A stretch of DNA of 52,700 bases from Armatimonadota bacterium (GTDB taxonomy: Bacteria > Sysuimicrobiota > Sysuimicrobiia > Sysuimicrobiales > Kaftiobacteriaceae), in contig JAHZOA010000004.1 of NCBI GenBank assembly GCA_020028455.1, positions 1-52,700 of the forward strand. The letters are read 5' to 3'. Within the stretch, counting starts at the first letter, position 1; each line of letters begins with the position of its first letter. The position numbers and the translations under genes were made by a program. The notes under the pieces were generated by a model. The model did no database searches. It was not told where the DNA came from and worked only from the letters and a program-made list of their open reading frames with translations. Below, piece by piece: positions 6,005 to 34,439 of this stretch.

Positions 6005-6059
6005 TTGGCAGGTCGTTTGGCTCACATGGGTTATCCGTTTCGCTGCTATACTGCGCGTC

Positions 6060-6755
6060 ATGGGCCGGCGTCACCATCTCACCATCCAGGCCCTACCACC
6101 TGAGCTAAGACCCCGTGAGCGGCTCTGCATGCATGGTCCCAGGGCCCTCTCGACCGCTGAGTTGCTCGCGATTGTCATCGGTGCTGGAACACGCGATGCC
6201 ACAGCGGTTGACGTAGGGGTTGCACTCCTGGCCCGCCATGAAACGCTGGGCCGCTTGTCCCAGGCATCGGTGCGAGAGTTGGCCGCGCACCGTGGGATGG
6301 GGCAGGCGAAAGCCGCCAAAGTCGTGGCCGCCCTCGAGCTTGGCCGCAGGCTGCTGGAGCCTCGTCCGATGCGGCCAGTGGTGCGGAGCGCGGCCGATGC
6401 GGCGGCCGTCGTGAGGCCGTCGATGGTGGGCCTTGACCGGGAGCATTTCCGCGTCCTCATGCTCAACACCAGGCACGAGATACTTGATATCGTGGAGGTG
6501 TCGGTGGGCGGGTTGAGCTCGGCGCCTGTGCACCCGCGCGAGGTGTTCAAGGAAGCGATTCGGGCCAGTGCAGCCGCGGTGATCGTCGTCCACAACCATC
6601 CGTCCGGCAGCTCTGAACCGAGTCGCGACGATGTGCTCATTACCGAGCAGCTCCGGGCCGCAGGCCGCCTCGTGGGCATCGAACTCCTCGACCATCTCAT
6701 CATCGGCGAGCGGTCATACACCAGCCTGCGCGAGGCGGGGCAGGGGTTTCCGTAG
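6060..6755 (+). CDS. radC: RadC-like JAB-domain protein
   Basis: PRERL..ELLAIVIG N-terminus and the JAMM motif HNHPSGSSEPSRDD. Confidence 0.85.
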   Translation: MGRRHHLTIQALPPELRPRERLCMHGPRALSTAELLAIVIGAGTRDATAVDVGVALLARHETLGRLSQASVRELAAHRGMGQAKAAKVVAALELGRRLLEPRPMRPVVRSAADAAAVVRPSMVGLDREHFRVLMLNTRHEILDIVEVSVGGLSSAPVHPREVFKEAIRASAAAVIVVHNHPSGSSEPSRDDVLITEQLRAAGRLVGIELLDHLIIGERSYTSLREAGQGFP

Positions 6756-16729: not shown

Positions 16730-16759
16730 TTGACGTGTCTTATCAACGCTGCCTATAAT
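16730..16759 (+). promoter_or_regulatory. Sigma-70 promoter of the T-box leader/tRNA-Ala/ilvE-leuS transcript
   Basis: TTGACG (16730-16735), 18-nt spacer, TATAAT (16754-16759), directly after the rsfS stop. Confidence 0.6.
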
Positions 16760-16888: not shown

Positions 16889-16971
16889 GCGGTCGTGGGT
16901 CGTAGGTCATAGGTCGTAGACAAGACAAAAGAGGCATTTGCCACGACCTACGACCGACGACCTATGACCGC
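16889..16971. repeat. Tandem-unit-arm hairpin repeat, GGTCGTR subfamily (copy 1)
   Basis: Left arm is GCGGTCGTGGGTCGTAGGTCATAGGTCGTAG. The reverse complement of the right arm is identical at 26/31 positions, and two of the differences still give G-U pairs. Loop is 21 nt and the termini are GCGG...CCGC. Confidence 0.9.
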
Positions 16972-17028: not shown

Positions 17029-17103
17029 GGGCCTGTAGCTCAGGGGGAGAGCGCCCGCTTGGCGTGCGGGAGGTCGCGGGTTCAATTCCCGCCAGGTCCA
17101 CCA
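17029..17103 (+). tRNA. tRNA-Ala (anticodon GGC), CCA encoded
   Basis: Cloverleaf folded by hand: 7-bp acceptor stem with G3:U70 (17031:17097), D arm GCTC/GAGC, anticodon loop TTGGCGT (GGC at 17061-17063), T arm GCGGG-TTCAATT-CCCGC, discriminator A, CCA at 17101-17103. Confidence 0.93.
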
Positions 17104-17121: not shown

Positions 17122-17181
17122 AAATTGGGTGGTACCGCGGAGACCCTCCGTCCCATGGACGAGAGGGCCTTCCTATTTCTT
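17122..17181 (+). promoter_or_regulatory. T-box sequence with antiterminator/terminator switch upstream of ilvE
   Basis: AAAUUGGGUGGUACCGCGG. Antiterminator is GGG[UGGUACC]GCGGAG-ACC-CUCCGU-CCC. The competing terminator is CCCUCCGUCC/GGACGAGAGGG followed by CCUUCCUAUUUCUU. Confidence 0.85.
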
Positions 17182-17207: not shown

Positions 17208-18152
17208 ATGACGATCGGAGCGCATGTCTGGATGAATGGACGGGTGGTCGCGGAAAGGGAGGCGACCGTGTCCGTGCGCGCGCACGCGCTGCACTACGGC
17301 AGCAGCGTGTTCGAGGGCATTCGAGCATATGCGACCCCGCGGGGGCCGGCCGCGTTCTGCCTCCAGCAGCACGTGGACCGGCTCTTCGACTCATGCCGGA
17401 TCTTCAGGATGGCCCTGCCGTACGCGCCCGATGAGATCACGAAGGCGATCGTCGATCTCATCCGCCGCAACGGCCACAACAACTGCTACGTCCGGCCCAT
17501 CGTCTACCGCGGAGCGGGCTCATTCAACCTGGACCACCGGAAGTCTCCGCTAGAAATGGCGATCATAACGCTGGAATGGGGTCGGTACCTGGGGGTCGAG
17601 GCAATTGAGCAAGGCGTTGATGTCATGGTCAGCTCCTGGCGACGAATGGCGCCGAATACGTTTGCTCCCATGGCGAAGATCGGCGGACAGTACGTGAATT
17701 CATCGTTTGTCGCCATGGAGGCCACAGACGGGGGATTTGTGGAAGGCATCGCGCTGGACGTCGAGGGTAACATCAGCGAAGGCAGTGGCGAGAACATCTT
17801 CCTCATTAAAGAAGGGGTCGTCTATACTCCCCCGCTCAGCAGCGCCATTTTGCCAGGTGTCACCCGCATGGCCGTCATGACGTTGTGCCGCGATCTCAAG
17901 TACCGTGTTGAGGAGCGGGCGCTGCCACGTGAGTTCCTGTACACGGCGGATGAAGTATTCTTTACCGGCACAGCCGCGGAGATCACACCCATCAAATCCG
18001 TGGATCGGGTACCCGTGGGGAAGGGAGGCAGAGGAGCCATCACGGCCCGCCTGCAGGGCGAGTTTTTTGGGATCACCGCCGGCAAGATCCCCGATCGCCA
18101 CATCTGGCTTACGTATGTGCACGCAGGTAAGCAGACTGTGAAGACCGGGTAG
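17208..18152 (+). CDS. ilvE: Branched-chain amino acid aminotransferase (class IV PLP fold)
   Basis: About 310 aa with BCAT-type motifs (VFEGIRAY, KIGGQYVNS, EGSGENIF, GVTR). GGGGAG SD. Confidence 0.9.
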   Translation: MTIGAHVWMNGRVVAEREATVSVRAHALHYGSSVFEGIRAYATPRGPAAFCLQQHVDRLFDSCRIFRMALPYAPDEITKAIVDLIRRNGHNNCYVRPIVYRGAGSFNLDHRKSPLEMAIITLEWGRYLGVEAIEQGVDVMVSSWRRMAPNTFAPMAKIGGQYVNSSFVAMEATDGGFVEGIALDVEGNISEGSGENIFLIKEGVVYTPPLSSAILPGVTRMAVMTLCRDLKYRVEERALPREFLYTADEVFFTGTAAEITPIKSVDRVPVGKGGRGAITARLQGEFFGITAGKIPDRHIWLTYVHAGKQTVKTG

Positions 18153-18184: not shown

Positions 18185-20683
18185 GTGACAGAACGCCATA
18201 ATCCGACCGCAATCGAGAAAAAGTGGCAGGCTCGGTGGGAGCAAGACCGCCTGCATGAGGCTAAGGATTTCGATCCAAAGCCGAAGTGGTATTTCCTGAC
18301 CATGTACCCGTATCCGTCCGGCGATCTGCACATCGGCCACTGGTACGCCATGGCGCCCTCCGACGCCGCAGCCAGATACAGGCGCATGCAAGGGTACAAT
18401 GTTGTGTTCCCGATCGGATTTGATGCGTTCGGGCTGCCGGCGGAGAATGCGGCGATCCAGCACGGCATTCACCCCTACAAATGGACCACAGACAACATCA
18501 ACCGCATGCGCACGCAACTGCGGTCGATGGGCGCGATGTGGGACTGGTCGCGGGAGATCGTCACCTGCGATCCTGAGTACTACCGGTGGAACCAGTGGTT
18601 CTTCTTGCGTATGTACGAGCGCGGACTGGCGTACCGGAAGCTAGCGCCGGTGGACTGGTGCCCGAAGGATAACACGACACTGGCACGCGAGCAGGTGGTG
18701 GGCGAGGAGCGCGTTTGCGAACGATGCGGTACCCCCGTGATCAAGAAGAACCTGGAACAGTGGTTCCTAAAAATCACCGCATACGCCGAGGAACTGCTGG
18801 ACTTCTCTGGGATTGCGTGGCCGGACCGTGTGCGGGTCCTGCAGGAGAACTGGATCGGGAAGAGCGTCGGCGTGGAGTTCGCCATGGAGGTGAAAGACCA
18901 CCCTGGCGTCTCGTTCCGGGTCTTTACGACCCGGCCCGACACCGTCTACGGGATGACATTCGCGGTGCTGGCGCCGGAGCATCCTCTGGTCGATCAATTG
19001 GTCACGCCGGACCGGCGCCGTGAGGTCGAGGCGTACAAGTTCAAAGCCGCCCGCGCATCGGATATCGAGCGGCTGTCCACTGAAAAGGACCGCGACGGTG
19101 TGTTTATCGGGGCCTTCGCCGTCAATCCGATGAGCGGCGAGCCGATGCCGATCTACATCGCCGATTACGTCCTGCTGACCTACGGCACCGGCGCCATCAT
19201 GGGCGTGCCGGCGCACGACGCGCGCGATTTCGAGTTTGCAAAGAAATACCAGCTCCCGATCCCGGTAGTGATCGCCCCACCTGGATGGGACGGCACGCCG
19301 TTGCGCGAGGCCTATCTGGGAGAGGGTACGATGGTCAATTCAGGCGCCTTCAGCGGCCTGCCATCAGTAGAAGGCTGGGAACGGATCGCAGACGCGATGG
19401 CAGCGCGCGGCATCGGTGAGCGAAAGATCAATTACCGCCTGCATGACTGGCTGATCAGCCGTCAGCGGTACTGGGGCACGCCGATCCCGATTATCTACTG
19501 CACGCACTGCGGCACCGTGCCTGTGCGGGACAATGAACTGCCGGTGGTGTTGCCGCTCGATGCAGAGTTCCGCCCGACAGGCGAATCACCATTGAAATTT
19601 CACGAGGGTTTCCGCCGCACGACATGCCCGAATTGTGGGCGCGGGGCCGAGCGAGAGACGGACACGATGGACACATTCATCGACTCGTCCTGGTACCAAT
19701 ACCGCTACGTGAGTCCCCATGAGGAACGTCACCCGTTCGAGGCCAAGAGGGGAACGTACTGGCTGCCGGTTGACCAGTACACCGGAGGCGTCGAACACGC
19801 GGTCATGCACCTCCTGTACACGCGCTTTTGGACGAAGGTGATGCGCGACATGGGGATGGTGCCGTTCGGTGAGCCGATGCTCCGGCTGTTCAACCAGGGA
19901 GTCATCCTTGGTGAAGACGGCGAGAAGATGAGCAAGTCTCGCGGCAACGTCGTCAACCCCGACGATTATGTTCAGAACGCCGGCGCCGACACGGTCCGCG
20001 GCTATCTGATGTTCATCGGTCCCTGGGACGGTGGCGGACCGTGGAACAGCAGGGGGATCGAAGGCATCAGCCGCTTTCTCCAGAGAGTTTGGAACCTAGT
20101 CACCGAGACAACGGGAACACGGGAACACGGGAACACGGGAACACGGAAGGATCCCGCAGCGTCTGATACGCGTTCCCGCGTTCCCGCGATCCCTGGTTCC
20201 CGAGATTTGGAGCATTGGACTCACAAAACCATTAAGAAGGTCACCGAGGATCTGGAAGGGTTCCACTTCAATACCGCGATCTCGTCATTGATGGAATACG
20301 TCAATTTCCTCTACGGCATACGCGATGAGCAGGTTGGTTCGGCGCAATGGGGTGAGGCGATGCGGAGCCTGGTCCTGTTGCTGGCACCAATGATGCCGCA
20401 CGTCGCGGAAGAACTGTGGGAGCAGATGGGTGAACCCTACAGCGTCCATCTTCAGCGCTGGCCGTCGTACACGGAAGGCTTGGCGAATGCCGAGGTGGTC
20501 ACGCTGGTGCTGCAGGTTGATGGCAAGGTTCGGGACCGCGTCCAGGCAGCGGCGGGTCTGCCTGAGTCTGAAGCGAGGACGATTGCGCTCGCCAATGAAA
20601 GGGTGAAGAAGTTCATGGATGGCCGCCAGGTCGCGGACGTGATTGTTGTACCCGGAAGACTCGTGAACGTCGTCACAAAATAG
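18185..20683 (+). CDS. leuS: Leucyl-tRNA synthetase, full length with CP1 editing domain
   Basis: PYPSGDLHIGH (HIGH), KMSKSRGN, editing motifs TTRPDT and GTGAIMGVPAHD, C-terminal tRNA-binding domain. Confidence 0.97.
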   Translation: MTERHNPTAIEKKWQARWEQDRLHEAKDFDPKPKWYFLTMYPYPSGDLHIGHWYAMAPSDAAARYRRMQGYNVVFPIGFDAFGLPAENAAIQHGIHPYKWTTDNINRMRTQLRSMGAMWDWSREIVTCDPEYYRWNQWFFLRMYERGLAYRKLAPVDWCPKDNTTLAREQVVGEERVCERCGTPVIKKNLEQWFLKITAYAEELLDFSGIAWPDRVRVLQENWIGKSVGVEFAMEVKDHPGVSFRVFTTRPDTVYGMTFAVLAPEHPLVDQLVTPDRRREVEAYKFKAARASDIERLSTEKDRDGVFIGAFAVNPMSGEPMPIYIADYVLLTYGTGAIMGVPAHDARDFEFAKKYQLPIPVVIAPPGWDGTPLREAYLGEGTMVNSGAFSGLPSVEGWERIADAMAARGIGERKINYRLHDWLISRQRYWGTPIPIIYCTHCGTVPVRDNELPVVLPLDAEFRPTGESPLKFHEGFRRTTCPNCGRGAERETDTMDTFIDSSWYQYRYVSPHEERHPFEAKRGTYWLPVDQYTGGVEHAVMHLLYTRFWTKVMRDMGMVPFGEPMLRLFNQGVILGEDGEKMSKSRGNVVNPDDYVQNAGADTVRGYLMFIGPWDGGGPWNSRGIEGISRFLQRVWNLVTETTGTREHGNTGTRKDPAASDTRSRVPAIPGSRDLEHWTHKTIKKVTEDLEGFHFNTAISSLMEYVNFLYGIRDEQVGSAQWGEAMRSLVLLLAPMMPHVAEELWEQMGEPYSVHLQRWPSYTEGLANAEVVTLVLQVDGKVRDRVQAAAGLPESEARTIALANERVKKFMDGRQVADVIVVPGRLVNVVTK
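20112..20202. repeat. Tandem-unit-arm hairpin repeat inside the leuS reading frame (unit CGGGAACA)
   Basis: (CGGGAACA)x4+CGG at 20112-20146. Imperfect inverted copy CGCGTTCCCGCGTTCCCGCGATCCCTGGTTCCCG at 20169-20202. Translated in frame as TGTREHGNTGTRKDPAASDTRSRVPAIPGS. Confidence 0.85.
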
Positions 20684-20755
20684 CGGTCGTGGGTCATGGG
20701 TCGTAGGTCGTGGAGACTGCATACCTACGACCCACGACCAACGACCTACGACCGC
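20683..20755. repeat. Tandem-unit-arm hairpin repeat, GGTCGTR subfamily (copy 2)
   Basis: Left arm GCGGTCGTGGGTCATGGGTCGTAGGTCGTGG, 10-nt loop, right arm ...CCTACGACCGC. The first base is the G of the leuS TAG stop. Confidence 0.9.
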
Positions 20756-20795: not shown

Positions 20796-22724
20796 GTGAA
20801 GCAGAAGTTTGACGTTCGCGCCATCGAAGACCGGTGGCGCCGGGCCTGGGAAGAGCAGGGGATCTACCGCACGCCGGAGCCTTCCACCAGGCCGAAAATG
20901 TACGTCCTCGATTTCTTCCCTTATCCCTCCGGCGATGGGCTCTCTGTGGGCCATGCGAGGAATTACGTACCCACCGACGTTCTGGCCCGCTATTTCCGCA
21001 TGCGCGGACATGCCGTGCTTCATCCGATGGGCTGGGATGCCTTTGGACTTCCCGCTGAGAACGAGGCTCTCCTAAAGCGCCGTCACCCGCGCGACACCAC
21101 CAGAGATTACTCGGCGAACTATCGGAGGCAGCTGCGGTTGATCGGCTGCTCGTACGATTGGTCGCGAGAGATCAGTACAAGCGATCCCGAGTTCTACCGG
21201 TGGACACAGTGGGGATTCCTCCTGCTGCTGCGTCGTGGGCTGGCGTACCGAGCGATGGGCTGGCAATGGTGGTGCCCGAAGTGCCGCACGATCCTGGCGA
21301 ATGAGCAGGTAGAGAACGGCCGTTGCTGGAGGCACACCGACACACCTGTCGAGAAGCGAGAGCTCGAGCAGTGGTACGTCCGCACGACCGCATACGCCGA
21401 TCGACTTTTGCACGATCTCGAGCGCGTGGACTGGCCCGAGCACATCAAGACGATGCAACGGAACTGGATCGGTCGTTTCGAAGAGGGGGGAACAGTCCGC
21501 TACCATTTGCATGACTGGCTCGTCAGCCGCCAGCGATACTGGGGCGCTCCAATACCGGTTGTGTACTGCGATCAGTGCGGGATCATCCCGGTGCCGGAAC
21601 ACCAGCTTCCTGTACTCCTTCCTGAAGTGGAATCGTACGAACCTGCGGGGACGGGGCGGTCACCGCTCGATGCGATGCCGGAGTTCGTGCACACATCGTG
21701 CCCGCGCTGTACGGGTCCCGCCCGGCGCGAAACTGACACACTGGATGGGTTCGCGGACTCGAACTGGTACTTCTTGCGGTTCGCCGATCCTTCGTATCGA
21801 GCCGGTCCATGGAATCCCGAGGCGATCCGCTATTGGATGCCGGTGGATTGGTACGTCGGCGGCGCGGAACAGGCGATCATGCACCTCCTGTATGCTCGGT
21901 TCTTCACCAAAGTGTTATTTGACGAGGGCCTCATTGAGTTTGAAGAGCCGTTCACCCGGCTGCGGAGCCAGGGGAGCATGCTGTCGCCGGTTGACGGTCT
22001 GCGCATGAGCAAATCTCGGGGCAACGTCGTGACGCCTGATGAGGTCGTAGACATCTACGGTGCTGATGCGCTGCGGGTCGCCGTGATGTTCATTGGACCG
22101 TTCGAGCAGGATGTCGCTTGGAATCCGGCGGTCGCCGCGGGCGCTGCGCGATTTGTGAGGAGGCTGTACCGGCTGCTGACACAACCTTCCACACACGGAG
22201 TCGGAAGTCGGGCCTCGGGAGTCGCCGGACAGAGGCATGATGTCCGATTACGCGTACATCAACTGATCAAATCTGCCGGAGAGGCGATTGAAAAGTTTCG
22301 GTTCAACACGCTGATCTCGGAAGTGATGACGTTCCTCAACGACGTAGAGGCGTGGAAACCTCAGTTTACAGGCACCGCGCTGTGGGACGAAATGACGGAC
22401 ACCCTGGTCAGAATCTGCGCACCTGTCACCCCCTTCGTGGCCGAAGACGCCTGGCACACCATGGGTCGGGAGGGAAGTGTGCATCACGCTCAATGGCCGG
22501 AGTATGATGCGTCACTGGTCCAGGACGTGACGCAGACCGTCATCATCCAGATTGATGGGAGAGTGCGAGACCGGATCACGGTGCCGCCGGATGCCGATCG
22601 CGATACCCACGTGCAGCTGGCGTCCGCGCGGTCTCGGGTGCGGGATGCCATTGGAAAACGGACCGTGAAACAGGTGGTGGTTGTGCCGGGGAAGGTCATC
22701 AACTTCGTGACCATAGACGCCTGA
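20796..22724 (+). CDS. Leucyl-tRNA synthetase paralog lacking the CP1 editing domain
   Basis: Collinear with LeuRS except that the 190 aa between NWIG and YxLHDWLxSRQRYWG are replaced by FEEGGTVR. HIGH reads SVGH and KMSKS reads RMSKS. Zn motifs CPKC..CWRH and CDQC..CPRC and the C-terminal domain are retained. Confidence 0.85.
   Translation: MKQKFDVRAIEDRWRRAWEEQGIYRTPEPSTRPKMYVLDFFPYPSGDGLSVGHARNYVPTDVLARYFRMRGHAVLHPMGWDAFGLPAENEALLKRRHPRDTTRDYSANYRRQLRLIGCSYDWSREISTSDPEFYRWTQWGFLLLLRRGLAYRAMGWQWWCPKCRTILANEQVENGRCWRHTDTPVEKRELEQWYVRTTAYADRLLHDLERVDWPEHIKTMQRNWIGRFEEGGTVRYHLHDWLVSRQRYWGAPIPVVYCDQCGIIPVPEHQLPVLLPEVESYEPAGTGRSPLDAMPEFVHTSCPRCTGPARRETDTLDGFADSNWYFLRFADPSYRAGPWNPEAIRYWMPVDWYVGGAEQAIMHLLYARFFTKVLFDEGLIEFEEPFTRLRSQGSMLSPVDGLRMSKSRGNVVTPDEVVDIYGADALRVAVMFIGPFEQDVAWNPAVAAGAARFVRRLYRLLTQPSTHGVGSRASGVAGQRHDVRLRVHQLIKSAGEAIEKFRFNTLISEVMTFLNDVEAWKPQFTGTALWDEMTDTLVRICAPVTPFVAEDAWHTMGREGSVHHAQWPEYDASLVQDVTQTVIIQIDGRVRDRITVPPDADRDTHVQLASARSRVRDAIGKRTVKQVVVVPGKVINFVTIDA
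22197..22224. repeat. Solo tandem heptamer array inside the leuS paralog
   Basis: GGAGTCG GAAGTCG GGCCTCG GGAGTCG, read in frame as GVGSRASGV. I found no inverted partner nearby. Confidence 0.6.
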
Positions 22725-26494: not shown

Positions 26495-26902
26495 GTGATG
26501 CCTGTGGAGCAACAGTCCCAAGCGCCGGACGCCTCGTCCGTGGAGCGAATCGAGCTCACCGTTCCCGGCCGGCCGGAGTACGTCGTCGTCGTCAGGCTGG
26601 CTGCCGCGGCGGTCGCCGGTCGCATGCCCTTTTCTTTCGATGACATTGAAGATCTGAAAGTTGCCGTCGGCGAAGTGGCCACCGCCGCCATCCTCTCCGG
26701 CGCGCCGAAGATTTCCGTATGGTTCGACGTCGGCGCGCAGCGCCTGGAGATCCGGGTCGTACACCGTCCCACCCGCACGGATCGCCCCACACAGGAGCGC
26801 GAGCTCGACAAGCTCCTCGTTCAGGTGCTCATGGATGAGGTCCGCACCGACCAGGATGGGGCCGATCACGTCACCCACATGGTCAAAAACATCCCAGGGT
26901 AG
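26495..26902 (+). CDS. RsbW/SpoIIAB-like anti-sigma factor with degenerate ATPase motifs
   Basis: 135 aa with the HATPase_c_2-like layout, immediately upstream of the sigma gene. The N-box reads GEVATAAI (no Asn) and no DxGxG box is visible. Confidence 0.6.
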   Translation: MMPVEQQSQAPDASSVERIELTVPGRPEYVVVVRLAAAAVAGRMPFSFDDIEDLKVAVGEVATAAILSGAPKISVWFDVGAQRLEIRVVHRPTRTDRPTQERELDKLLVQVLMDEVRTDQDGADHVTHMVKNIPG

Positions 26903-26914
26903 GTTAGGTTACCT

Positions 26915-27679
26915 GTGCCGAGGCAGCAGCGTAAGCAGGCAGATCGAGAGGCGATCCGCGTCCTCTTCCAGGAGCACTGGAAGACGAAGGACCGCGCGAT
27001 CCGCGAGCAGCTCGTGCTGGCCCACGGCAGCTTGGCGAGCTATCTCGCCCGGAAGTTCAGCAACCGTGGTGAACCGCTCGACGATCTCGGCCAGGTCGCC
27101 CAAATCGGATTGCTGAAGGCGATTGGCCGCTACGATCCGACTCGAGGCATTGAGTTTACGACGTACGCGACCGTGACGATTGTCGGCGAGATCAAACGGC
27201 ACTTCCGTGACAAGTACTGGTCGGTCCGTGTCCCAAGGCGCCTCCGAGAGCTGAACAACGCTCTGATGAAGACGGTCGAAGTGATGGCCCAGCGTCTGGG
27301 ACGTTCGCCTACACTCCCCGAGATCGCGGCAGAGACCGGGGTGCCGTTTGAAGAAGTTGTCGAGGCGTTCGAACTAGGGCGCGCGTATAACCCCGCGTCC
27401 CTGGACGCCGAGGTGGCGGAGGGCGATGATGAGCATCCGTCGTCGCTCATGGATTATCTGGGAGAAGTTGATCCCGCGCTCAGCCGGTTAGAAGATCGCC
27501 ACACGGTGCAAGGCGCGCTGGCCTCGCTGCCCGACCGGCATCGTGAGGTCCTAAAGATGCGCTATTACGATGGACTTTCTCAGGCCGAGATCGCGCGGCG
27601 CCTGGGAATCTCGCAGATGCACGTCTCGCGCATACAGCGGGATGCTTTGAAGAAGTTGAGGGCGATGATCGAGGCTTAG
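26915..27679 (+). CDS. Group-3 sigma factor (SigB/SigF type)
   Basis: Region 2 (GEPLDDLGQVAQIGLLKAIGRYDP, FTTYATVTIVGEIKRHFRD), region 3, and region 4 (YYDGLSQAEIARRLGISQMHVSRI). Confidence 0.9.
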   Translation: MPRQQRKQADREAIRVLFQEHWKTKDRAIREQLVLAHGSLASYLARKFSNRGEPLDDLGQVAQIGLLKAIGRYDPTRGIEFTTYATVTIVGEIKRHFRDKYWSVRVPRRLRELNNALMKTVEVMAQRLGRSPTLPEIAAETGVPFEEVVEAFELGRAYNPASLDAEVAEGDDEHPSSLMDYLGEVDPALSRLEDRHTVQGALASLPDRHREVLKMRYYDGLSQAEIARRLGISQMHVSRIQRDALKKLRAMIEA

Positions 27680-27688
27680 CCTTACGGC

Positions 27689-30151
27689 TTACTGCCTAGT
27701 GCTTTCTGCCTTCGCCGTTTCTTTCTCAGTGAGTGTCCACCGCAATTCGACCTTCGTTCCCGCAGGTCCGGCCACGGTCTCCACGCTGTCCGCAAAGCCT
27801 TCCATAAGCCGGCGGCCTCGTCCGCGGCCACGCTCCTGCACGGGGCGCCATTCCCCGGTGTCACGTAAGGACACGGTAAGCGTGCTGTCGCGCACTCTCG
27901 CGTCTACTGCCACCTCGCCGGTCTCGCCCCGGTAGGCGTGCTCGACGATATTGAGCGCAGCCTCCCCGACGGCGGCGACGATCTCCTCGACTCGGCGGGG
28001 CGGAAATCCCACCCGTTCAGCGTAGATTCGCACCGCATGGCGGACGCGGCGTAAGTTTTCTGGAGCGGCCCGGAGCGCAAAAGATAAGGGCGCGGAGGAG
28101 GGCAAGACGTCGAGCATCAGGAGGGCGATGTCGTCTTCTTGCCGGTCGCCTCGCAACACATCCGTGACTAACGTGCGTGCTGCACGGTCGCCAGGCTGCC
28201 CGAGCGTGGCGGCGATGGCGTCTCTCAGCCGCCGTTCACCTTCGATCGGGTCCCGGGTCACTTCAATGAGCCCATCTGTGTACGCGATGAGCCGCTCTCC
28301 GGAAGCGAGTTGCGCGCGGTCATCTTGATACGTAACGGAAGAAGAGAATCCGATCGGCGGCGATTGGCTGGTCAGTTCGCGAATGCCATCGGTTCCCTGC
28401 ACGAGCACCGGTGGGTGTCCCGCCCCTCCATAGATCAGTTCGCCCGTGGTCGGGTCGAGCGTCGCGAGCCACATCGAGAGGTTCGTGGGTTCAGGCAGCT
28501 GCAGGAGGTAATGATTGACCGCCGCCATCACATCCGCAGGGCGGCGGCCCTCGATCGCCAGCGCCCGAACCAGATAGCGGACCTGAGCCATGGCCGCGGC
28601 TGCAGCGATCCCGTGTCCGGCCACGTCGCCTATGCTGATTAACAACCGATCGTCGGGCAACAGCAACGCGTCGTACCAATCACCTCCGACGCGGGCTTCC
28701 GGATCCGCTGCCTGGTAGAGCGCCGTGATTGCCACGAAGGGGACCCGGGGCAATTCCGCAGGAAGAAGCGCACGTTGCAGCGTGACGGACAATTCACGGG
28801 CTTTGCGCTTCGTCTGTTCGAACAACTCCAAGCGCGATACCGTCAGCCCGAGTTGGTCTGCGATCGGTTGTGAGAGCTGCGCGTGCTCGGCGGTGTAGAA
28901 CCCCGGCACATCGTGCCCAAAGTTCAGCGTGCCGATGACGCGTCCACCCACGGTCATCGGCACCACGACGTAGGAGCGGATGCCCGCTTCCGCGAGCAGC
29001 GCATCCTCAGCAAACTGCTGGGACTGAACGGTGTCATCACGGATGAACGCCTGGCCGAGGTCGATGACCCACCCGCGGGCGGTGTCGGCTTTCGGCCCTT
29101 CTAATCGCTCCGGTGGGGCGGTGAGTCGCGGACCTTTGAAGTACGGCATCGTCAGAGTCTCGGACTCGGGATTGTAGAGGGAGACCGTGACGCGAACGAA
29201 CGGCACGAGGGTGCGCAAGACCTCGCTAAATTCATCGAAGACATGGCTCAGGTCGAGCGCGCCAGCGGCCATGGCGATCAGCCGGTTCGTCGCGTTGACT
29301 CGGCGAAGTGCAGCCTCCGTCTCGTCCCGAGCCTGTCGCTCTGCTGCGAGCAAGTGCGCGTTGTCGATAGCGACAGCGGCACGGGCGGCAAGTTCTTCTG
29401 CTAATGCGAGGTCCGCGGCCGAGTATCGCCGGGACGGTCCGCCGATGAAGGAGATTGCCCCCAGGGTGCGGCCGCGCGCAATGAGGGGGACCACGATGTG
29501 TGAGTGGATTCCCAGGGATCGGAGAAGATTGAAGTGCACCTCATCCCGTGCCCGGTCGCGGAGGTCTGCTTCCGTGACTTCCGGAGTGAGTTCGGCCTGA
29601 CCGCTGCGAAGCACGCGCAGGATCACGTGCTGGGGATTTGGAGTCGGCGGGTAGCGGAGGCGCAACTCGCGCACCAGGGATTCTTTGCTGGGATCGCTGT
29701 GCGCGATGCCGACCTGCCGGATTGCGCCCTGATCGTCGAGCAGGTCGACGATACACCAGTCGGCGATCGTCGGGACTGCTAGCCGCGCGATGCTCGCCAG
29801 CGTCGCCTCATACTCGAGCGATGCGGCGAGAATGCGGCTGGCTTCGGCCAACAGGGCCAATCGTCTGACGGCCTCTTCTTCCTTCGCTAACGCGCGGTCC
29901 AGCATTTCGGTCAGGGCGACCGCGCGACGATGCCCCGCTTCGGCTTTCCGCGCGCGCTCCGTCACCATGCGAAGCTTTCGCTCGGTCCGCGAAGCCGTCT
30001 TCGATGCGCGGCGCCGCGCCAGAGTGGTTCGACTGGGCACGTTTCGCTTGCGTTCAGTCATTGACGGAGTAGAGGGCGGGCCTAGATGAACAGAATCGGT
30101 CGCGGAGGTGTCAGGCTTTGGGCGAGCCTTTCGCCCAACTCCTGGCGGCAT
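27689..30151 (-). CDS. Multidomain partner-switching protein: coiled-coil N-terminus, 2x GAF, PP2C (SpoIIE/RsbU) phosphatase, C-terminal RsbW-like kinase domain
   Basis: PP2C motifs (GGDWYD, IGDVAGHG, YTDGLIE). The C-terminal domain has an intact N-box (EAALNIVEHAY) and G boxes (RDTGEW, GRGRG). An alternative start at 30061 is possible. Confidence 0.85.
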   Translation of the reverse strand: MPPGVGRKARPKPDTSATDSVHLGPPSTPSMTERKRNVPSRTTLARRRASKTASRTERKLRMVTERARKAEAGHRRAVALTEMLDRALAKEEEAVRRLALLAEASRILAASLEYEATLASIARLAVPTIADWCIVDLLDDQGAIRQVGIAHSDPSKESLVRELRLRYPPTPNPQHVILRVLRSGQAELTPEVTEADLRDRARDEVHFNLLRSLGIHSHIVVPLIARGRTLGAISFIGGPSRRYSAADLALAEELAARAAVAIDNAHLLAAERQARDETEAALRRVNATNRLIAMAAGALDLSHVFDEFSEVLRTLVPFVRVTVSLYNPESETLTMPYFKGPRLTAPPERLEGPKADTARGWVIDLGQAFIRDDTVQSQQFAEDALLAEAGIRSYVVVPMTVGGRVIGTLNFGHDVPGFYTAEHAQLSQPIADQLGLTVSRLELFEQTKRKARELSVTLQRALLPAELPRVPFVAITALYQAADPEARVGGDWYDALLLPDDRLLISIGDVAGHGIAAAAAMAQVRYLVRALAIEGRRPADVMAAVNHYLLQLPEPTNLSMWLATLDPTTGELIYGGAGHPPVLVQGTDGIRELTSQSPPIGFSSSVTYQDDRAQLASGERLIAYTDGLIEVTRDPIEGERRLRDAIAATLGQPGDRAARTLVTDVLRGDRQEDDIALLMLDVLPSSAPLSFALRAAPENLRRVRHAVRIYAERVGFPPRRVEEIVAAVGEAALNIVEHAYRGETGEVAVDARVRDSTLTVSLRDTGEWRPVQERGRGRGRRLMEGFADSVETVAGPAGTKVELRWTLTEKETAKAESTRQ

Positions 30152-34305: not shown

Positions 34306-34439
34306 GCGGTCGTGGGTCGTTGGTCGTAGGTCGTGGCGCAACCCCGCCGGCCTCGCAAGGAAATCGGCTGCCATTTCCGAAAGGATTCCTATTTTCAGGC
34401 GTGTTATCTACGAGCTACGACCCACGACCTACGACCGCT
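34306..34439. repeat. Tandem-unit-arm hairpin repeat, GGTCGTR subfamily (copy 3, long loop)
   Basis: Left arm GCGGTCGTGGGTCGTTGGTCGTAGGTCGTGG is 29/31 identical to the copy-2 arm. The reverse complement of the right arm matches at 27/31. Loop is 72 nt. Confidence 0.9.

Follow-up and report, generated by a model that had tools for sequence, protein, structure and literature searches.

A conserved second leucyl-tRNA synthetase gene without the CP1 editing domain stands in tandem with leuS in an Armatimonadota lineage

A tandem leucyl-tRNA synthetase gene lacks the CP1 editing domain

A 52,700 nt stretch of DNA from an Armatimonadota bacterium (contig JAHZOA010000004.1 of assembly GCA_020028455.1; hereafter the window) carries two leucyl-tRNA synthetase (LeuRS) genes in tandem. 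The first, leuS (18185..20683, + strand), encodes a housekeeping enzyme of 832 aa with LHIGH and KMSKS motifs and a CP1 editing domain that bears TTRPDT and GTGAIMGVPAHDARD. The second, termed leuS2 (20796..22724, + strand), starts 112 nt behind the end of leuS and encodes a LeuRS of 642 aa, in which a short linker stands in place of CP1 and the HIGH motif reads SVGH. Both reading frames are unbroken. We consider the odds slightly better than even (roughly 0.55) that leuS2 encodes an active LeuRS without post-transfer editing, an accessory enzyme that is co-expressed with an editing-proficient LeuRS.

An initial annotation of the window, made from the sequence letters, had noted a second LeuRS gene right behind a normal one, its CP1 cleanly and completely excised and the remaining enzyme, motifs and frame retained. 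The open reading frames and profile matches confirm the gene pair, and the absence of CP1 is seen alike with Pfam, NCBIfam, BLASTP and alignment to Thermus thermophilus LeuRS. Specifically, a Pfam search of both proteins places PF13603 (the LeuRS editing domain) at aa 221-405 of LeuS (E 7e-63) and yields no match to it in LeuS2, whereas PF00133, PF09334 and PF08264 are found in both proteins (PF08264 of LeuS2 at E 7e-23). The NCBIfam model TIGR00396 (leuS_bact), which has a curated equivalog cutoff of 548 bits, scores LeuS at 977 bits and LeuS2 at 723 bits, and its match to LeuS2 falls into two stretches that skip the CP1 model positions. The profile alignment that the initial annotation had proposed, editing-domain model included, thus places LeuS2 among LeuRSs above the cutoff with the editing domain absent.

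When the two proteins are compared by BLASTP, residues 1-227 of LeuS align with residues 1-227 of LeuS2 at 47% identity and residues 415-831 with 234-639 at 42% identity, leaving about 188 residues of LeuS to face only about 6-8 residues of LeuS2 (FEEGGTV). Aligned with T. thermophilus LeuRS, LeuS2 skips residues ~229-411, the span of the CP1 insertion, and then matches up to residue 875 of 878, so the C-terminal domain is kept. A search of the whole window revealed no separate CP1-like coding sequence elsewhere.

Outside CP1, LeuS2 carries PYPSGDGLSVGH, RMSKS, the cysteine clusters CPKC..CWRH and CDQC..CPRC, and the C-terminal domain. On the + strand, S50-V51-G52-H53, which in the SVGH subfamily described below takes the place of HIGH, is encoded at 20943..20954, and the codons of the F228-V234 linker (FEEGGTV), predicted to form a β-hairpin, occupy 21477..21497. 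These are followed by the codons for H237-L238-H239 (21504..21512), the equivalents of Escherichia coli R416-L417-R418 in tRNA acceptor-end handling, and for the KMSKS loop R403-M-S-K-S407 (22002..22016), with P398-V-D-G401 just before it. In the sequence PVDG-L-RMSKS about four residues stand where a leucine-specific domain would be, and the canonical LeuS of the window likewise lacks that domain. The ZN-1 cluster of LeuS is a variant, CPKD...CERC (residues ~158-182), whereas LeuS2 has retained a cluster like that of T. thermophilus, CPKC...CWRH, and zinc may be bound differently by the two proteins.

LeuS2 keeps a complete LeuRS scaffold

Near-universal LeuRS residues were defined from 153 CP1-containing LeuRSs spanning all subfamilies, in which 138 alignment columns reach at least 95% conservation. 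LeuS2 of the window keeps 134 of these, and other CP1-less proteins keep 131-137. Its four changes are S228F, G230E, H359Q and E551D, the first two of which fall in the now-redundant N-terminal CP1 connector. The leucyl-adenylate (Leu-AMP) pocket, which in structure 1H3N comprises T. thermophilus D80, F501, S504, Y507, E540, H541 and H545 (numbering derived from the alignment with LeuS2), is represented in LeuS2 by conserved D81, F319, S322, Y325, E358 and H363. Only the H541 position is changed, and this position is variable among close relatives.

An AlphaFold2 model of LeuS2 (predicted local distance difference test 88.2; predicted template modelling score 0.86) exhibits a β-hairpin at the CP1 exit point, formed by strands 228-230 and 233-235, and a confident C-terminal α/β domain at residues 580-640. 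Foldseek comparison of the model with T. thermophilus, E. coli and Neisseria gonorrhoeae LeuRS gives template modelling (TM) scores of 0.82-0.85, and the best reciprocal match is the Mycoplasma mobile enzyme 3ZIU (TM 0.82/0.85 and 0.80/0.89). The structure prediction that had been suggested as a check of the gene therefore yields a LeuRS fold, one that matches a CP1-less enzyme. These data show LeuS2 to be a complete bacterial LeuRS scaffold, with a Rossmann core, the ZN-1 and second cysteine clusters, KMSKS, and anticodon-binding and C-terminal tRNA-binding domains.

A LeuRS-like protein might also bind tRNA-Leu or make Leu-AMP, or both, without supplying the ribosome, perhaps to sense leucine or tRNA or to serve another pathway as donor. 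Such roles have been proposed for Sulfolobaceae LeuRS-I and Halobacteria LeuRS2, and the known duplicated LeuRSs aminoacylate little or not at all (PMC9437257); the altered HIGH motif and H359Q of LeuS2 would be in keeping with this. However, unlike LeuRS-I, LeuS2 has a conserved C-terminal domain, KMSKS motif and pocket residues D81, F319, S322, Y325 and H363, and SVGH is common to CP1-containing homologs annotated as LeuRS in many Chloroflexota metagenome-assembled genomes (MAGs). Furthermore, no transferase or carrier-protein partner genes lie next to leuS2 in its neighbourhood. A non-translational function is therefore quite improbable in our view.

SVGH is a conserved subfamily signature

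The HIGH motif of LeuS2 had initially been described as degenerated to SVGH, an interpretation that the homologs contradict. The motif region is covered by 111 of the best 120 homologs, and PYPSGxGLSVGH is present in all 111. CP1 with the TTRxxT and GxGxxMxVPxxDxRD editing motifs is carried by 85 of these proteins. In a 64-sequence alignment with a mean identity of 51%, L49, G52 and H53 never vary, and the conservation of S50 and V51 is 90% or higher. Because it is constant across so much divergence, SVGH is best read as the constrained signature of a large, mostly Chloroflexota LeuRS subfamily rather than as decay. Members bear the annotation leucine-tRNA ligase in a Chthonomonas MAG (L006) and in many Chloroflexota MAGs, among them multi-megabase contigs.

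The HIGH position of LeuS2 reads SVGH with a one-residue insertion and is accompanied by RMSKS. In the HxGH nucleotidyltransferase superfamily, threonine or serine occurs in place of the first histidine, for example in the TxGH motif of phosphopantetheine adenylyltransferase. Since such variants occur in the wider superfamily, catalysis with serine in the first position of the motif is plausible by analogy.

The same comparisons bear on the origin of the gene. LeuS2 is 64-71% identical to CP1-containing SVGH-type LeuRSs compared with 42-47% to its neighbour LeuS, and the two proteins of the window sit in different clades of the LeuRS tree. The recent tandem duplication that the initial annotation had implied is rejected by these identities and by the phylogeny. 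Recent horizontal acquisition was considered and rejected as well, because the G+C content, third-codon-position G+C content and codon usage of leuS2 are indistinguishable from those of neighbouring genes. Since these values match, any transfer would have to be old; an older transfer is possible.

leuS2 is an accessory gene under purifying selection

The order rne-rplU-rpmA-obg-nadD-rsfS-...-ilvE-leuS-leuS2 recurs in related MAGs filed at NCBI under Armatimonadota, ‘Bacillati bacterium ANGP1’ or just ‘bacterium’. A class IV aminotransferase gene (ilvE-like; 17208..18152, + strand; PF01063, E 3e-52) is the first gene of the putative operon and lies upstream of leuS in all relatives. The tandem leuS-leuS2 arrangement itself recurs in independent assemblies from NCBI, JGI, ENA and Logan. 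The second gene encodes a protein with full CP1 in the related loci L084 and L085 (876 aa), with a shortened CP1 in L090 and L091 (756 aa), and without CP1 in the window, L081, L087, L088 and L089 (642-680 aa). Loci L092-L095 represent the same region (ilvE-leuS-comEA-like-extracytoplasmic function sigma factor...) with leuS present and no second gene. Because leuS is found in every related locus and the second gene is full-CP1, shortened-CP1, CP1-less or absent, the HIGH-type leuS is the universal housekeeping gene and the SVGH-type leuS2 is accessory. In relatives, the overlap between leuS and leuS2 is 4 nt in L088 and 17 nt in L089, and a spacer of 7-25 nt parts them in L081, L084 and L087, distances that suggest co-transcription and, in some genomes, translational coupling.

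Pairwise ratios of nonsynonymous to synonymous substitution rates (dN/dS, or ω; Nei-Gojobori method, NG86) for leuS2 are 0.27 at dS 0.16, 0.12 at dS 0.96 and 0.12 at dS 1.3, and in the same genome pairs the values for the neighbouring leuS are 0.16, 0.12 and 0.10. Overall, ω for leuS2 is 0.07-0.27, and the CP1-less form is frame-intact across relatives that are 76-100% identical, with dS up to >1. Thus leuS2 is under purifying selection nearly as strong as that on its neighbour, and the neutral evolution that the initial annotation had named as a sign of a pseudogene is not seen. An assembly artefact or pseudogene is rejected by these ω values together with the unbroken frames in many independent assemblies. 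Within those leuS2 genes of the lineage that still contain CP1, this domain diverges 1.65 times as fast as the enzyme body, whereas the factor is 0.90 in canonical leuS; because of this difference, relaxed constraint on editing before the loss of CP1 would fit the data.

This history could also be that of a redundant relic, passing stepwise from full CP1 to shortened CP1 to none and then to loss of the gene, without a distinct role at any point. All four states do occur at one locus in one lineage, CP1 evolves faster than the enzyme body, and the dN of leuS2 is somewhat above that of leuS. However, a dispensable gene would be expected to gather stops and frameshifts over such divergence, whereas the CP1-less frame stays intact at the identities, dS and ω just given and its products keep 131-137 of the 138 near-universal residues. 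A redundant relic is thus an unlikely description of leuS2.

CP1 has been lost repeatedly within the SVGH subfamily

In a neighbour-joining tree of 178 LeuRSs, built with the CP1 columns removed, CP1-less proteins are scattered over several places within the SVGH clade. Parsimony on bootstrap trees requires 5-6 state changes in 60 of 60 replicates, and in none of the 60 are the CP1-less sequences all monophyletic. The leuS2 clade of the lineage is recovered in 60/60 replicates and the window subclade in 100/100, and inside this lineage CP1 may have been lost once or twice, the bootstrap values being 21% and 30%. By a conservative count, CP1 was lost independently at least four times within the SVGH subfamily.

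Further candidates were found in a scan of 1.84 billion representative proteins, in which the best 150 matches include about a dozen more short clusters (626-707 aa) without the TTRxxT motif of CP1. Their readable motifs are HVGH, HIGH, HMGH or SVGH, and several have no recognisable KMSKS, which makes the status of these clusters less certain. The short LeuRS-like proteins without TTRxxT (P0272, P0281, P0323, P0324, P0329, P0331, P0341, P0344, P0360 and P0503) belong to LeuRS subfamilies other than SVGH, with HVGH, HIGH or HMGH where the motif can be read, and extend to further taxa, namely a Sulfomarinibacteraceae MAG, an Actinomycetes MAG and some low-GC-like sequences; some that carry no recognisable KMSKS or HIGH may be inactive. 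A genome scan of GTDB with LeuS2 gave, among the matches listed, a CP1-less candidate in an Actinomycetes MAG (L001, 9863-11998) and also supplied outgroups for the LeuRS tree, and a 637 aa relative was found in a Sulfomarinibacteraceae MAG. Where the CP1 junction is readable, WIG is followed by 5-14 mostly acidic or glycine residues and then by (Y/F)x(L/I/M/F)(R/H)DW. The initial annotation had cited M. mobile as the natural example of a CP1-less LeuRS; such proteins recur in metagenomic data and appear to be far more widespread than that characterised case.

A second setting is seen in Promineifilaceae-like Chloroflexota. At one FeoABC-leuS-LysM-efp locus, the CP1-containing P0419 (824 aa; L096, 10001-12475) has as its counterparts the CP1-less P0053 (L082, 10001-11941) and P0089 (L097, 10001-11941), both of 646 aa, and the proteins are 83-90% identical outside CP1. 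Here CP1 was deleted in place from an orthologous gene and not from an extra tandem copy, and near relatives are polymorphic for the presence of the editing domain. Matching contigs to genomes, a weak method, detected no CP1-containing LeuRS alongside the CP1-less one in these Chloroflexota MAGs. If the CP1-less gene is the sole leuS there, a partner enzyme is no precondition for the loss of CP1.

Residues for tRNA acceptor-end handling change with CP1 loss

In E. coli LeuRS, R416 and R418 belong to the motif 416-RLRDWGVSRQRYWG-429, which follows the CP1 insertion, and have roles in the passage of the CCA end from one to the other of the CP1 and synthetic sites (PMC3664829). R418 touches A73 and promotes entry of the CCA end to the synthetic site; the R418A variant has 14% of catalytic efficiency left, and R418Q and R418N rank above R418E and R418D (PMC3664829).

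The window LeuS2 has H237-L-H239 at these positions. Among the sequences collected here, the R418 equivalent is histidine in 47 of 54 distinct CP1-less proteins and the R416 equivalent is non-basic in 30 of 54, compared with 11 of 482 CP1-containing proteins. The proteins so counted lack phylogenetic independence, however, and histidine also occupies the R418 position in the canonical, CP1-containing LeuS of the lineage. R239H sets the CP1-less proteins of nearly every clade apart from at least 95% of the CP1-containing SVGH proteins. This pattern fits an acceptor end that would still be bound but no longer shuttled.

A candidate leucine T-box leader precedes the two synthetase genes

A sigma-70-like promoter, TTGACG-18-TATAAT (11 of 12 matches; 16730..16759, + strand), lies just upstream of a leader whose sequence resembles T-box RNAs (RF00230; 16771..17158, + strand) and which precedes ilvE-leuS-leuS2. 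The -10 element of the window lines up with TATAAT in L081, L084 and L090. Its stem I has a K-turn and AG-bulge-like and GGUGNRA distal motifs, its specifier loop reads GAA-CUC-G (leucine codon CUC), and the T-box sequence AAAUUGGGUGGUACCGCG and a terminator-like hairpin follow. The terminator-like hairpin with its U-rich tract (17139..17181, + strand) overlaps the 3′ half of the T-box antiterminator region, and the leader consensus of the relatives ends in CGTTnCTnTTTnT. Neither the CUC specifier nor the T-box motif GGGUGGUACCGCGG varies among seven related loci, those that have no leuS2 among them. The ilvE-leuS-leuS2 operon is therefore probably induced by uncharged tRNA-Leu, and if so both synthetases would answer one signal. 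Co-regulation with the normal leuS, as the initial annotation had supposed, is made plausible by this conserved leucine T-box and by the short spacers or overlaps in relatives.

The leader also contains a complete tRNA-Ala(GGC) gene (17029..17103, + strand; ARAGORN and Rfam, 67.9 bits). It sits in the loop of a helix directly 5′ of the T-box sequence, in the place of stem III. A tRNA-Ala is present at the equivalent position in L081, L084, L088, L090, L092 and L094, making seven loci with the window (tRNA-Ala or leader spans: L081, 6202-6497; L084, ~6052-6126; L088, 5969-6043; L090, 6208-6282; L092, 4871-4945; L094, 4872-4946). The enclosing helix covaries, as GAUAGC/GCUAUC, GACAGG/CCUGUC (L092) and GAUGGA/UCCGUC (L094). 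A constitutive leader transcript may double as a tRNA precursor. We know of no T-box with an embedded tRNA gene that has been described.

A second insertion consists of tandem GGTCGTR heptads and their complements, arranged as a palindrome. There are three copies in the window, within the T-box leader after stem I (16891-16969), in the leuS-leuS2 spacer (20685-20753) and near 34.3 kb (34308-34436), with 18 pattern hits where 0.14 are expected; a diverged hairpin of heptads stands in the leader of L088 where the window has its leader copy. The spacer copy (20685..20753, + strand), a 69 nt element that fills the spacer, would fold into a hairpin of -57 kcal/mol (z-score -5.5). Only in the window is the spacer so filled, whereas the relatives have the spacers and overlaps given above. 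An intrinsic terminator was rejected as the identity of this hairpin, given that it has no U-tract and is one of three repeat copies. The element looks like a repetitive extragenic palindromic (REP) sequence or a miniature inverted-repeat transposable element (MITE), and its spacer copy may modulate the ratio of LeuS to LeuS2.

A T-box would also suit a back-up or resistance enzyme, an active LeuS2 that is insensitive to a natural LeuRS inhibitor, whether an adenylate mimic or an editing-site trap. Inhibition of LeuS would then leave tRNA-Leu uncharged, open the T-box and raise both enzymes, and the inhibited partner could still edit in trans. Second copies of aminoacyl-tRNA synthetases (aaRSs) commonly act in this manner, for example IleRS2 and SerRS2 (PMC9437257), and a T-box regulates some back-up aaRS genes such as Bacillus subtilis tyrZ (work referenced in PMC9437257). 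Among LeuRSs, AgnB2 (PDB 5AH5) is an example. Further points in favour are that the synthetic site of LeuS2 has a divergent signature (SVGH, FFPYPSG), that the protein has no benzoxaborole target site and that leuS2 occurs patchily within the lineage.

The surroundings of the gene argue otherwise. The window neighbourhood comprises rne, rplU, rpmA, obg, nadD, rsfS, ilvE, a transporter gene and sigma/anti-sigma genes, and no biosynthetic or resistance genes lie near leuS2; since no biosynthetic cluster is nearby, a role in self-immunity is disfavoured. Moreover, leuS2 would be co-transcribed with the supposedly sensitive leuS and not separately induced, and CP1-containing members of its clade occupy the same position, such that CP1 loss does not define the accessory gene. 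We also know of no natural editing-site inhibitor of LeuRS. A back-up function consequently has, in our estimate, a small chance of being correct.

In genomes that carry leuS2, a partner-switching module also lies in the stretch from leuS2 to the comEA-like gene (window, 26495-27679 and 27689-30151; L081, 13904-18807; L084, 12712-14450). Its parts are an RsbW-like HATPase_c_2 kinase, a SigB-like sigma factor, a STAS protein and sometimes a GAF-SpoIIE-kinase protein. The module is missing from the leuS2-less loci L092-L095, and L090 holds the STAS gene only.

LeuS2 differs from known CP1-less and duplicated enzymes

The closest architectural parallel is M. mobile LeuRS (3ZIU), which has the same minimal organization and is collinear with LeuS2 in one stretch (LeuS2 7-638 vs 11-636). 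The mycoplasma enzyme carries a nine-residue acidic/glycine linker, 227-KEEIDGKIT-235, in place of CP1 and 398-GKDG-401 in place of the leucine-specific domain (PMC3643597); LeuS2 has 228-FEEGGTV-234 and 398-PVDG-401 at the corresponding positions. M. mobile LeuRS charges tRNA and mischarges isoleucine, and when its linker replaces CP1 in E. coli LeuRS aminoacylation is preserved (PMC3643597). In contrast to this likeness in design, the two proteins are only ~35% identical, and LeuS2 is nested in the SVGH clade rather than in the HxGH subfamily. Because LeuS2 comes from a different LeuRS subfamily, its loss of CP1 is independent of that in M. mobile. The mycoplasma enzyme is also the sole LeuRS of a reduced parasite genome, whereas leuS2 is an accessory beside a normal leuS in a free-living bacterium of ~62% G+C.

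CP1-containing SVGH LeuRSs from Chloroflexota and Chthonomonas-like Armatimonadota MAGs (for example P0010, P0101 and P0419) have PYPSGxGLSVGH, (R/K)MSKS and the cysteine clusters in common with LeuS2, at 53-71% identity, and P0010 is encoded at the same tandem position. LeuS2 differs from them in having no CP1 and in having histidine at the R416 and R418 equivalents.

Sulfolobaceae LeuRS-I and Natrialba magadii LeuRS2 also stand beside a canonical LeuRS. LeuRS-I is an archaeal-type enzyme with a disrupted CP1, a very divergent C-terminal domain and no aminoacylation (PMC9437257; PMC4005665), and the N. magadii enzymes join a bacterial-type LeuRS body to an archaeal tRNA-binding domain in an archaeal host (PMC4005665). 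Unlike these archaeal duplicates, leuS2 is wholly bacterial-type and co-operonic, with a conserved C-terminal domain and a fully excised CP1. AgnB2 of Agrobacterium radiobacter K84 (5AH5) is an extra bacterial LeuRS with TM scores of 0.81-0.83 to the LeuS2 model. It retains CP1 and is encoded on a plasmid together with the agrocin 84 biosynthesis genes. By comparison, leuS2 encodes no CP1, has a housekeeping chromosomal setting and adjoins no inhibitor biosynthesis genes. Finally, the window leader differs from those of T-box-controlled aaRS and amino-acid operons in holding a whole tRNA-Ala gene and a palindromic repeat insertion.

Proposed function of an editing-free partner

Our favoured interpretation, that LeuS2 is an active but editing-free accessory LeuRS, can be set out as a series of proposed steps. 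To judge from its conserved scaffold, LeuS2 would activate leucine and charge tRNA-Leu. The leucine T-box attenuator would raise ilvE-leuS-leuS2 expression when tRNA-Leu is uncharged, such that editing-proficient LeuS is always made alongside LeuS2. The CP1 domain of LeuS2 would become dispensable because its partner clears mischarged tRNA-Leu in trans, as we infer, or because the errors are tolerated. CP1 would then have been deleted from leuS2, and the residues equivalent to R416 and R418 would subsequently have been retuned to histidine, since a CCA end without two sites to visit needs no shuttling between them. Both M. mobile LeuRS and the E. coli enzyme with the M. mobile linker aminoacylate (PMC3643597).

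Several observations weigh against this interpretation. With regard to the enzyme, the first histidine of the HIGH motif is serine in LeuS2, and H359Q affects the equivalent of T. thermophilus His541, a residue beside the synthetic site that is histidine in close relatives; catalytic competence is inferred from conservation only. With regard to expression, the window leader scores 70.4 bits (E 3e-15) with RF00230, below the Rfam gathering score of 93 because of the two large insertions, and that of L081 scores 70.2 bits. The terminator hairpin (-22.9 kcal/mol, z-score -1.9) is not unusual on its own, and the hairpin in the leuS-leuS2 spacer could lower leuS2 expression. In addition, the CP1 deletion in Chloroflexota occurred at what may be the only leuS locus of those genomes.

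Implications for LeuRS proofreading

Editing by LeuRS is regarded as essential for free-living cells, and to our knowledge the sole characterised natural CP1-less LeuRS is that of a mistranslating mycoplasma. The literature we searched treats M. mobile as the CP1-less case (PMC3643597), and a 2022 review of duplicated aaRSs lists, for LeuRS, only Sulfolobaceae LeuRS-I and Halobacteria LeuRS2 (PMC9437257). An incomplete literature search found neither an SVGH subfamily nor a co-operonic CP1-less LeuRS described, and no account of CP1 being deleted recurrently.

A broader proposal, which we offer as speculative and rather doubtful, is that the SVGH subfamily tolerates CP1 loss unusually well, with deletions that are clean and repeated and with acceptor-end residues retuned each time. 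The window lineage would then pair an editing-free charger with a trans-proofreading partner under one leucine T-box, and a CP1-less enzyme would perhaps be the sole LeuRS in some free-living Chloroflexota. If true, this would overturn the view that CP1-less LeuRSs are confined to degenerate parasites.

The close pairs of enzymes with and without CP1 (90% identical) and the at least four independent clean deletions in one subfamily provide a natural experiment on the dispensability of proofreading, on editing in trans by a paralog, on the co-evolution of CCA-shuttle residues with CP1 and on the use of serine for the first histidine of HIGH. The CP1-less enzymes are predicted to be intrinsically insensitive to benzoxaborole drugs and may offer compact LeuRS scaffolds for engineering. 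Furthermore, if the Chloroflexota genomes with a CP1-less gene hold no other LeuRS, a free-living bacterium would be living on an editing-less LeuRS alone.

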